64,000 bases of DNA from an uncultured archaeon (GTDB lineage Archaea; Thermoplasmatota; Penumbrarchaeia; JASLWR01): contig CAYFHS010000007.1 in the NCBI GenBank assembly GCA_964342815.1, positions 32,001 through 96,000 on the forward strand, given 5' to 3'. The notes below the pieces were generated by a model, which was not told where the DNA came from, searched no databases, and worked only from the letters and a program-made list of their open reading frames with translations. The position numbers were made by a program, and so were the translations under genes. Shown here in pieces: positions 58,460 to 58,863 of this stretch (the first letter of the stretch is position 1; every line of letters begins with the position of its first letter).

Positions 58460-58863
58460 GTCAATGGTGTGAACAGCGATAAAATGGGTCGTGAATAGGT
58501 AAATTCACCTCACCCTCGGCCAAGCAACTTATTGGACGTTACGGGAATGCTGCCGTAGGAGATATTCTCAGTATCGTAAACCTTAGAGTTTCCTGCGGGT
58601 GTTGAAATTCGCAGCTTGACAATCCTCGACAAATCAAAGATTTGCCTGGCATGACAGGTCTCGATGAATCAGAGATACTTGATGAATCAGAGATTCATCT
58701 GTACCCTCGGGAGGTATCCCTACGGGTTCATCTGACTTGCCAAGTAGCGATGCATCCGAGGATGCATCTAATTTGCCAGGTGGTAACCTGTCAAACCGTA
58801 ACTTGACAAGCTGTTACCTGCCATAGTTCGCAGAATCACAGTCCGAAGGACCGATTCTGCTGA
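58460..58863. mobile_element. ~404-bp non-coding hairpin-rich element (non-autonomous mobile element or structured RNA)
   Basis: No ORF of 60 aa or more; at least 10 hairpins and long-range complementary pairs; both ends shared with the 68-bp element at 46930-46997; flanks AAGAT/AATAT on the minus strand. Confidence 0.6.

Follow-up and report, generated by a model that had tools for sequence, protein, structure and literature searches.

A hairpin-rich intergenic sequence of an uncultured Thermoplasmatota archaeon is a copy of a dispersed two-hairpin repeat family, probably of non-autonomous mobile DNA

Results

A structured non-coding sequence between two divergent genes

The window analysed here is a stretch of 64,000 nucleotides from one contig of an uncultured Thermoplasmatota archaeon; the genome to which it belongs (hereafter G000) amounts to 4.35 Mb in 116 contigs and is 88.9% complete. 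The sequence under study lies in an intergenic gap of this window, between two divergent genes:

57105-58379, minus strand: 2-hydroxyacyl-CoA dehydratase-like gene, left of the gap
58380-58974: intergenic gap
58975-59760, plus strand: activator ATPase-like gene (for the dehydratase-like gene), right of the gap

The initial annotation described 58460-58863 as a non-coding, hairpin-rich element. No open reading frame longer than 54 aa was found within the stretch, and the hairpins listed for it, the direct repeat GATGAATCAGAGAT (at 58663 and 58681) and three long-range complementarities were all found in place. Its folding energy was -143.4 kcal/mol on the plus strand and -141.3 kcal/mol on the minus strand, with z about -5.5 relative to shuffled sequences on both strands. 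Two of the long-range complementarities cross, which had been taken to imply a pseudoknot or a switch; minimum-energy folds were nested on both strands, and the crossing arises because repeat modules recur in both orientations. When the window, the region and canonical copies of the repeat described below were compared with Rfam 15, no family was matched at or above the gathering threshold or at permissive E-values, where the matches returned (SNORD74 at 13 bits, mir-587 at 22 bits, PhotoRC-I at 14 bits) were at chance level. A proposed resemblance to omega or HEARO RNAs was not borne out, as neither a TnpB/IscB context nor any Rfam match, HEARO included, was found.

The stretch is a copy of a 97-nt two-hairpin repeat

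Comparison with G000 by BLAST and nhmmer resolved the stretch into a mosaic of short modules, all of which recur elsewhere in its own genome. The underlying unit was recognised from a mini copy at 46.9 kb in the same window. This unit is a repeat of about 97 nt, given the working name TH97, which consists of two adjacent hairpins, A and B, unrelated to each other in sequence. On the folding strand the canonical form reads:

Flank and hairpin A: ATA (flank), then TTGTCAA-TGG-TGCAAA...TTTGCA-GC-TTGACAAT
Linker and hairpin B: G, then TTCGCGGAATCG...CGATTCCGC-T-GAAT(C)

As the initial annotation had proposed, the stretch and the mini copy share both ends, and a single covariance model matches both. 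The mini copy has a short hairpin A:

46927-46999, minus strand: mini copy of TH97 (E = 3e-11 with covariance model R1), target ATA at 47000-47002 read on the minus strand

Within the segment 46800-47150 of the window, this 73-nt mini copy separates a hicB-like antitoxin gene from a hicA-like toxin gene, lying exactly between the two, and its excision would make these genes overlap. A syntenic hicBA counterpart was found in none of the genomes G001, G002, G003 and G005, so that there is no empty site with which the mini copy could be compared.

The location first proposed for the element was correct, and its extent was revised to 58458-58866, with the target ATA at 58455-58457. Its anatomy is as follows:

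58455-58457, plus strand: flanking target ATA, the element being directly 3' of it
58458-58866, plus strand (the folding strand): whole element, a TH97 copy of a four-hairpin subfamily, 409 nt
58458-58473, plus strand: hairpin A, 5' strand (TTGTCAATGGTGTGAA), family consensus, identical in the sister species
58474-58603, plus strand: hairpin A tip insert, 130 nt (15 nt in the sister species), a module of about 75 nt plus a further insert
58604-58623, plus strand: hairpin A, 3' strand (GAAATTCGCAGCTTGACAAT), as in the consensus and the sister species
58624-58658, plus strand: module L between hairpins A and B, a CAAATC-AAA-GATTTG hairpin followed by the 5' strand of hairpin L2 (CCTGGCATGACAGG)
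58659-58813, plus strand: hairpin L2 tip insert, 155 nt (3 nt in the sister species), modules D and E
58667-58736: repeat module D, recurring elsewhere
58727-58838: repeat module E, recurring elsewhere
58814-58826, plus strand: hairpin L2, 3' strand (TTACCTGCCATAG)
58827-58866, plus strand: hairpin B, TTCGCAGAATC, tip ACAGTCCGAAGGACC, GATTCTGCTGAATC

Of the 409 nt of this copy, 116 nt form the core and 293 nt are secondary inserts carried in the tips of three hairpins. The ~75-nt module of the hairpin A tip is also present in about eight other copies and bears here a further, unique nested insert (around 58520-58576); module L occurs in about seven copies in G000; module D yielded 16 matches, of which many lie outside TH97 copies. 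The 404-bp copy had been regarded as a long form of the element. It is neither a long form nor a parental one; it is a 97-nt core to which an extra two-hairpin module and nested inserts of other repeats have been added.

TH97 is abundant in a few related genomes

Covariance model R1, built from TH97 copies, was used to count copies in each genome, and the further copies that the initial annotation anticipated were found: 46 in G000, 77 in its sister species (G001), 88 in a member of another genus (G003) and 59 in a member of another family (G005). Eight further genomes of the class carry 1-12 copies, and R1 found none in the remaining 19 genomes searched. In a broader scan, the 20-nt junction between hairpins A and B was compared with one genome for each of 185,579 species. 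Repeated matches were obtained in two Thermoplasmatota MAGs only, namely G001 (ETNP2_MAG_1) and G003 (SRP077602_co2_347); the other matches were in one Thermoplasmata MAG and, singly and at roughly the number expected by chance, in about 10 bacterial genomes.

In G000 the copies are dispersed singly over more than 40 contigs and form no co-oriented arrays bounding cassettes. A hairpin B model (HMM) detected 56 loci in this genome, about 20 of which are split by 60-200 nt sitting in the tip. In G005 (contigs C922, C575 and C797 among others), solo copies of hairpin B are strung head to tail, one about every 70 nt, and many of these arrays lie at the ends of contigs.

GTAG or CTAC beside a hairpin bounds many of the units nested in TH97 copies (for example GTAG-hairpin-CGAGG, about 36 strict cases), and the genome-wide frequency of GTAG-plus-hairpin is marginally raised (4.5% vs about 3.9% for other tetramers). 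Units of this GTAG/CTAC-tagged repeat system also occur on their own: at 11040-11200 of the segment compared from G000 contig C39, beside a tRNA gene 100% conserved between species, G000 has one as a nested hairpin insert of roughly 60 nt (GGGCCCGTCAG...CTACGGGCCC), and G001 lacks it.

One strand folds better in all canonical copies

For each of the 15 canonical copies the fold is more stable on the ATATTGTCA...GCTGAAT strand, the average energy being -39.2 kcal/mol vs -30.3 kcal/mol for the opposite strand. In an unfitted MAFFT alignment, one-sided stem changes on this strand produced 24 G-U and 3 A-C combinations, leaving aside a pair for which 17 of 19 copies have G-U. The stems of 37 distinct copies from eight or more genomes contained 700 Watson-Crick, 58 G-U and 10 A-C pairs; 36 of the 58 G-U pairs fall at a single position, and the remainder stand at 22 G-U vs 10 A-C. 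Several stem pairs covary across these copies, and the hairpin A stems of distant genomes are fully different. The G-U asymmetry fits RNA and single-stranded DNA alike. It had been noticed at first on the minus strand, which holds for one inner pair of the hairpin B tip; across the family the asymmetry belongs to the folding strand, that is the plus strand for the copy studied here.

TH97 inserts 3' of ATA

Four G000 copies are absent at the syntenic site of G001, three of them with clean junctions. The clean sites are C1:196994, C5:114622 and C4:121671, and have the form X-ATA/Y when empty and X-ATA(TTGTCA...GAATN)Y when filled; the fourth, fuzzier absence is at C39:12812. On the folding strand, with a slash at the empty junction and the element in parentheses, the three clean pairs are:

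AGCATA/CAGGG vs AGCATA(TTGTCAT...GCTGAATT)CAGGG
TTATA/CTTCG vs TTATA(TTGTCAA...GCTGAATC)CTTCC
CGAATA/AC vs AGAATA(TTGTTAT...CTCTGAATA)AC

The search for empty alleles thus yielded three clean ones, all with ATA, and the filled and empty sites of the two sister species show that the family is mobile, in support of the initial proposal of a mobile, non-autonomous family. TH97 inserts directly 3' of ATA, without clear target duplication. Aligned copies and junctions also bear out the reported absence of terminal inverted repeats. Before TTGTCA in the aligned copies, the T-A of the ATA is invariant and the first A is present in about 90%. An imperfect duplication of 2-3 nt (ATA/ATN) may still be accommodated by the junctions; the terminal base is probably part of the element, since it is a conserved C in distant genomes. 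At C5:112829, G001 holds a solo hairpin B only. TH97 is not a classical MITE, having neither terminal inverted repeats nor a clear target-site duplication.

Crude ORF calls placed 7 copies in divergent gaps and 1 in a convergent gap, a promoter-side bias for which the ATA preference would account. Between tandem genes, the same crude calls gave 12 co-oriented and 10 anti-oriented copies. The upstream flanks of TH97 copies are mutually unrelated and contain no conserved promoter. Orientation agreed with GC skew for 29 of 54 copies and with the local gene-strand majority for 25 of 54, which is no bias in what is, for a fragmented MAG, a weak test; targeting of the lagging strand gains no support from this comparison.

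Cores are stable and tips change between sister species

G001 carries the element at the same site as G000, with shared flanks, and the exact blocks common to the two genomes are 58426-58473, 58604-58658, 58814-58837 and 58846-58869. All 116 bases of the core are identical (116/116), whereas identity in the flanking coding sequences is 84% and 76%. The three tips vary by clean indels, with 130 nt in G000 vs 15 nt in G001 for hairpin A, 155 vs 3 nt for hairpin L2 and 8 vs 75 nt for hairpin B, where the longer form in the sister species is an insert. Three other orthologous copies were compared. At C2:73391 the two copies are 95/97 identical with flanks at about 60-80%; at C2:84709 the core is unchanged, and G001 has in addition module L, an insertion polymorphism at this copy, and an insert in the hairpin B tip; at C36:3217 the core has diverged by about 10%, and in G001 the two tips are longer.

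Conservation between G000 and G001 extends to the native intergenic blocks on either side of the element (32/32 at 58426-58457 and 54/55 at 58876-58930), which exceed the coding flanks (76-84%). These blocks probably act as divergent promoters, or as leaders, for the dehydratase and activator genes. As the neighbouring native blocks are equally conserved, conservation of the core at this locus could reflect regional constraint. G003 has no element at the site and has kept the native left block (TTATTAATCTTTTTRTC), with TTATTAAT.

Known transposase genes do not track TH97

The initial annotation suggested mobilisation in trans by an IS200/IS605-type HUH transposase. Insertion beside a fixed short target without clear duplication fits IS200/IS605-like, single-strand chemistry; a link to an HUH transposase was not found. 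Y1_Tnp (PF01797) was not detected in G000 (88.9% complete), in G005 (59 copies), in G009 or in G030. G001 has two full Y1 genes and two fragments, and G003 has one gene; two of these three full genes have IS200-type hairpin ends of their own, and none of the three has an R1 match. The hairpins of the IS200-type elements in G001 and G003 are of the GCCAGTGCC...GGCACTGG type and are unrelated to the TH97 ends. One such transposase (163 aa, on G001 contig C158 and G003 contig C1) is nearly identical across the two genera and unrelated to TH97, its gene being bordered by matching hairpins, with GCCAGTGCCTTTAGGC(A/T)CTGG upstream and GCCAGCTCCTTTAGGGGCTGG downstream.

The TnpB domain (PF07282) was not found in G000. 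IS110 (PF01548) is represented in G000 by a single gene on its own small contig, C110 (1579 bp), and was not found in G001, G002, G003 or G005. The position of the IS110 gene alone on a tiny contig is expected of a multi-copy insertion sequence that breaks the assembly. Two other candidates were set aside: Bro-N proteins adjoin the element in two low-copy genomes but were not found in the four high-copy genomes, and a search for an autonomous parent, in which the 5' and 3' end motifs had to lie 0.5-6 kb from each other, returned background only. In conclusion, Y1, TnpB and IS110 genes do not track TH97, and no cognate transposase was found.

Discussion

Resemblance to known hairpin elements

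The closest known kind of element is the haloarchaeal PATE with its SMR-A inserts. PATEs of Haloquadratum walsbyi have no inverted ends, carry palindromes near their termini, make no duplication and follow a short 5' targeting sequence; strain-specific insertions are observed even where tnpA is defective, and their palindromes are invaded by small SMR-A repeats, which are 110 bp long and have inverted ends (PMC3119063). The palindromes of PATEs match IS605-type transposons of the same genomes, and the two end palindromes resemble each other (PMC3119063). TH97 shares with PATEs an archaeal host, a length too short for a transposase, the absence of terminal inverted repeats, palindromes at or near both ends, the lack of (clear) duplication, a short fixed 5' sequence, strain- or species-specific insertion and invasion of the palindromes. 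It differs in that its hairpins match no IS605-type transposon found, A and B are mutually unrelated and the target is just 3 nt, and the nested units differ from SMR-A in being far smaller and in lacking inverted ends.

IS200/IS605 elements such as IS608 and ISDra2 transpose as single strands by 'peel and paste'. Strand-specific hairpins, ends that are not inverted, the absence of duplication and insertion 3' of a short specific sequence are common to these elements and TH97. In contrast, TH97 has no linked TnpA, its hairpins are terminal rather than subterminal and differ at the two ends, and no GC-skew bias was seen. The BOX elements of Streptococcus pneumoniae, for which no transposase is known, consist of boxA-boxB(n)-boxC modules in tandem. 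Like TH97, they are modular non-coding repeats in which the end modules are conserved and the number of inner modules varies; unlike those of TH97, their modules are in tandem and not nested in hairpin tips, and there is no relation in sequence.

REPs, known from bacteria, are 20-40 nt long, and the RAYT (REP-associated Y1 transposase) is flanked by its own REPs (PMC2817692, PMC3116915, PMC3733652); they lie mostly downstream of genes and in convergent gaps, and GTAG REPs contain G-T pairs (PMC3733652). The REP/BIME/REPIN and TH97 systems have in common high-copy extragenic palindromes, mosaic clusters, G-T stem pairs, lineage-specific families and long vertical persistence. TH97 stands apart by its archaeal host, its 97-nt two-hairpin core, the absence of GTAG, its preference for promoter-side gaps and the lack of a linked RAYT.

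Interpretation

We favour, with a probability of roughly 65%, the view that 58458-58866 represents an old, resident copy of TH97, a family of non-autonomous mobile DNA folding on one strand and targeted to ATA. Copies of TH97 are gained or lost between sister species, as the filled and empty sites show, and the hairpin tips and the A/B junction later receive small hairpin repeats, as seen in orthologous copies; this uptake at the tips and junction is why the copy has reached 409 nt with no change in its 116-nt core. The family may move in the form of folded single-stranded DNA, along a route like that of IS200/IS605 elements or PATEs, with the enzyme supplied in trans. The constant core might reflect recognition by that enzyme or by a host protein, or gene conversion among copies. 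Several observations count against this scheme. Plain selfish DNA does not predict that orthologous cores are far more conserved than their flanks; no cognate transposase was found; the two hairpins are dissimilar, unlike IS200/IS605 ends, and terminal; and the target has only 3 nt.

The conservation of the core is also what would be expected if TH97 copies functioned as structured RNAs, whether as small RNA genes or as cis-acting leaders, with the core under selection and the tips free to vary. This reading, which we consider unlikely, draws on the G-U wobble asymmetry and the covariation, on the core being 100% identical between species at the 58458-58866 site vs 76-84% for the coding flanks, and on the excess of divergent (promoter) over convergent gaps (7 to 1). 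However, folded single-stranded DNA also tolerates G-T pairs, and the native blocks beside the copy are equally conserved, so that regional constraint could explain the core at this site. The orientation of copies is independent of the strand of the neighbouring gene (12 vs 10), and their unrelated upstream flanks offer no conserved promoter; together these two features argue against a family of transcribed RNA genes. Nor do 46-88 copies per genome, with presence/absence differences between sister species and no matching Rfam family, suit such a role. That the long form in particular encodes a structured RNA with a pseudoknot, as first suggested, is unsupported, its extra length being nested repeats that vary between species. 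The same point applies to a transposon guide RNA of the omega-RNA/HEARO or IS110 bridge RNA type, an explanation to which we give hardly any credence; the sequence is highly structured and its end abuts flanking DNA, but no TnpB-type nuclease domain was found in G000, the single IS110 gene lies on a 1.6-kb contig unrelated to the element, with none found in the other high-copy genomes, and no Rfam model, that of HEARO included, is matched.

Another reading is a REP/BIME-type system moved by a RAYT; the mosaic clusters of short palindromes, the GTAG/CTAC bounds of many nested units and the G-T pairing, as in GTAG REPs (PMC3733652), are all reminiscent of one. We hold it to be quite improbable: TH97 itself does not carry the GTAG tag, GTAG-plus-hairpin is barely enriched genome-wide, the divergent-to-convergent ratio of 7 to 1 is opposed to the preference of REPs for convergent gaps, and no Y1 gene is flanked by TH97 repeats, none at all having been found in two high-copy genomes. 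Folded-DNA recombination sites of an integron-like system, similar to attC, would likewise be hairpins that fold on a single strand, with conserved bases and a variable tip, and the mini copy is located in a toxin-antitoxin module. Against this very improbable reading, copies are single and dispersed over more than 40 contigs instead of forming co-oriented arrays that bound cassettes, their ends (ATATTGTCA and GCTGAAT) differ from candidate integron-type sites (ATTTCGCATAA...GTTA), no GTTRRRY-type core is present, and insertion occurs into ordinary intergenic ATA sites.

Two further readings we regard as possible, if on the unlikely side. TH97 and its nested units might be spread by a class of enzyme not yet linked to hairpin repeats, which would insert folded single-stranded units beside ATA and into hairpin tips (with C-GNA-G-type loops); or the core might be a structural DNA or RNA signal selected by the host, which would explain why 116/116 core bases are unchanged while the flanking genes differ by 16-24%. 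Either, if true, would make TH97 an archaeal counterpart of REP/RAYT with different machinery.

Small hairpin repeats without a transposase of their own are well known from work on bacteria (REP/REPIN-RAYT) and haloarchaea (PATE/SMR); the same is not true of marine Thermoplasmatota, and our literature search on repeats of the TH97 sort in Thermoplasmatota returned nothing specific. From two sister genomes one can read directly where the insertion junctions lie, which strand folds and how a copy grew step by step through nested tip inserts. As no known transposase accompanies the family, TH97 is a concrete place in which to seek a new activity that mobilises single-stranded DNA. For annotation, a warning is in order: the numerous 'ornate RNA' candidates of these MAGs are mosaics built from the TH97 repeat system, whose repeats also break the assemblies.

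Two other features of the window were recorded. A predicted multi-pass membrane protein encoded at 59862-60914 terminates in a long acidic tail of low complexity, composed of DYDG/DYDD repeats. At 27508-27606, a tRNA match extends over 99 nt vs 71 positions in the model, and the gene probably contains an intron.
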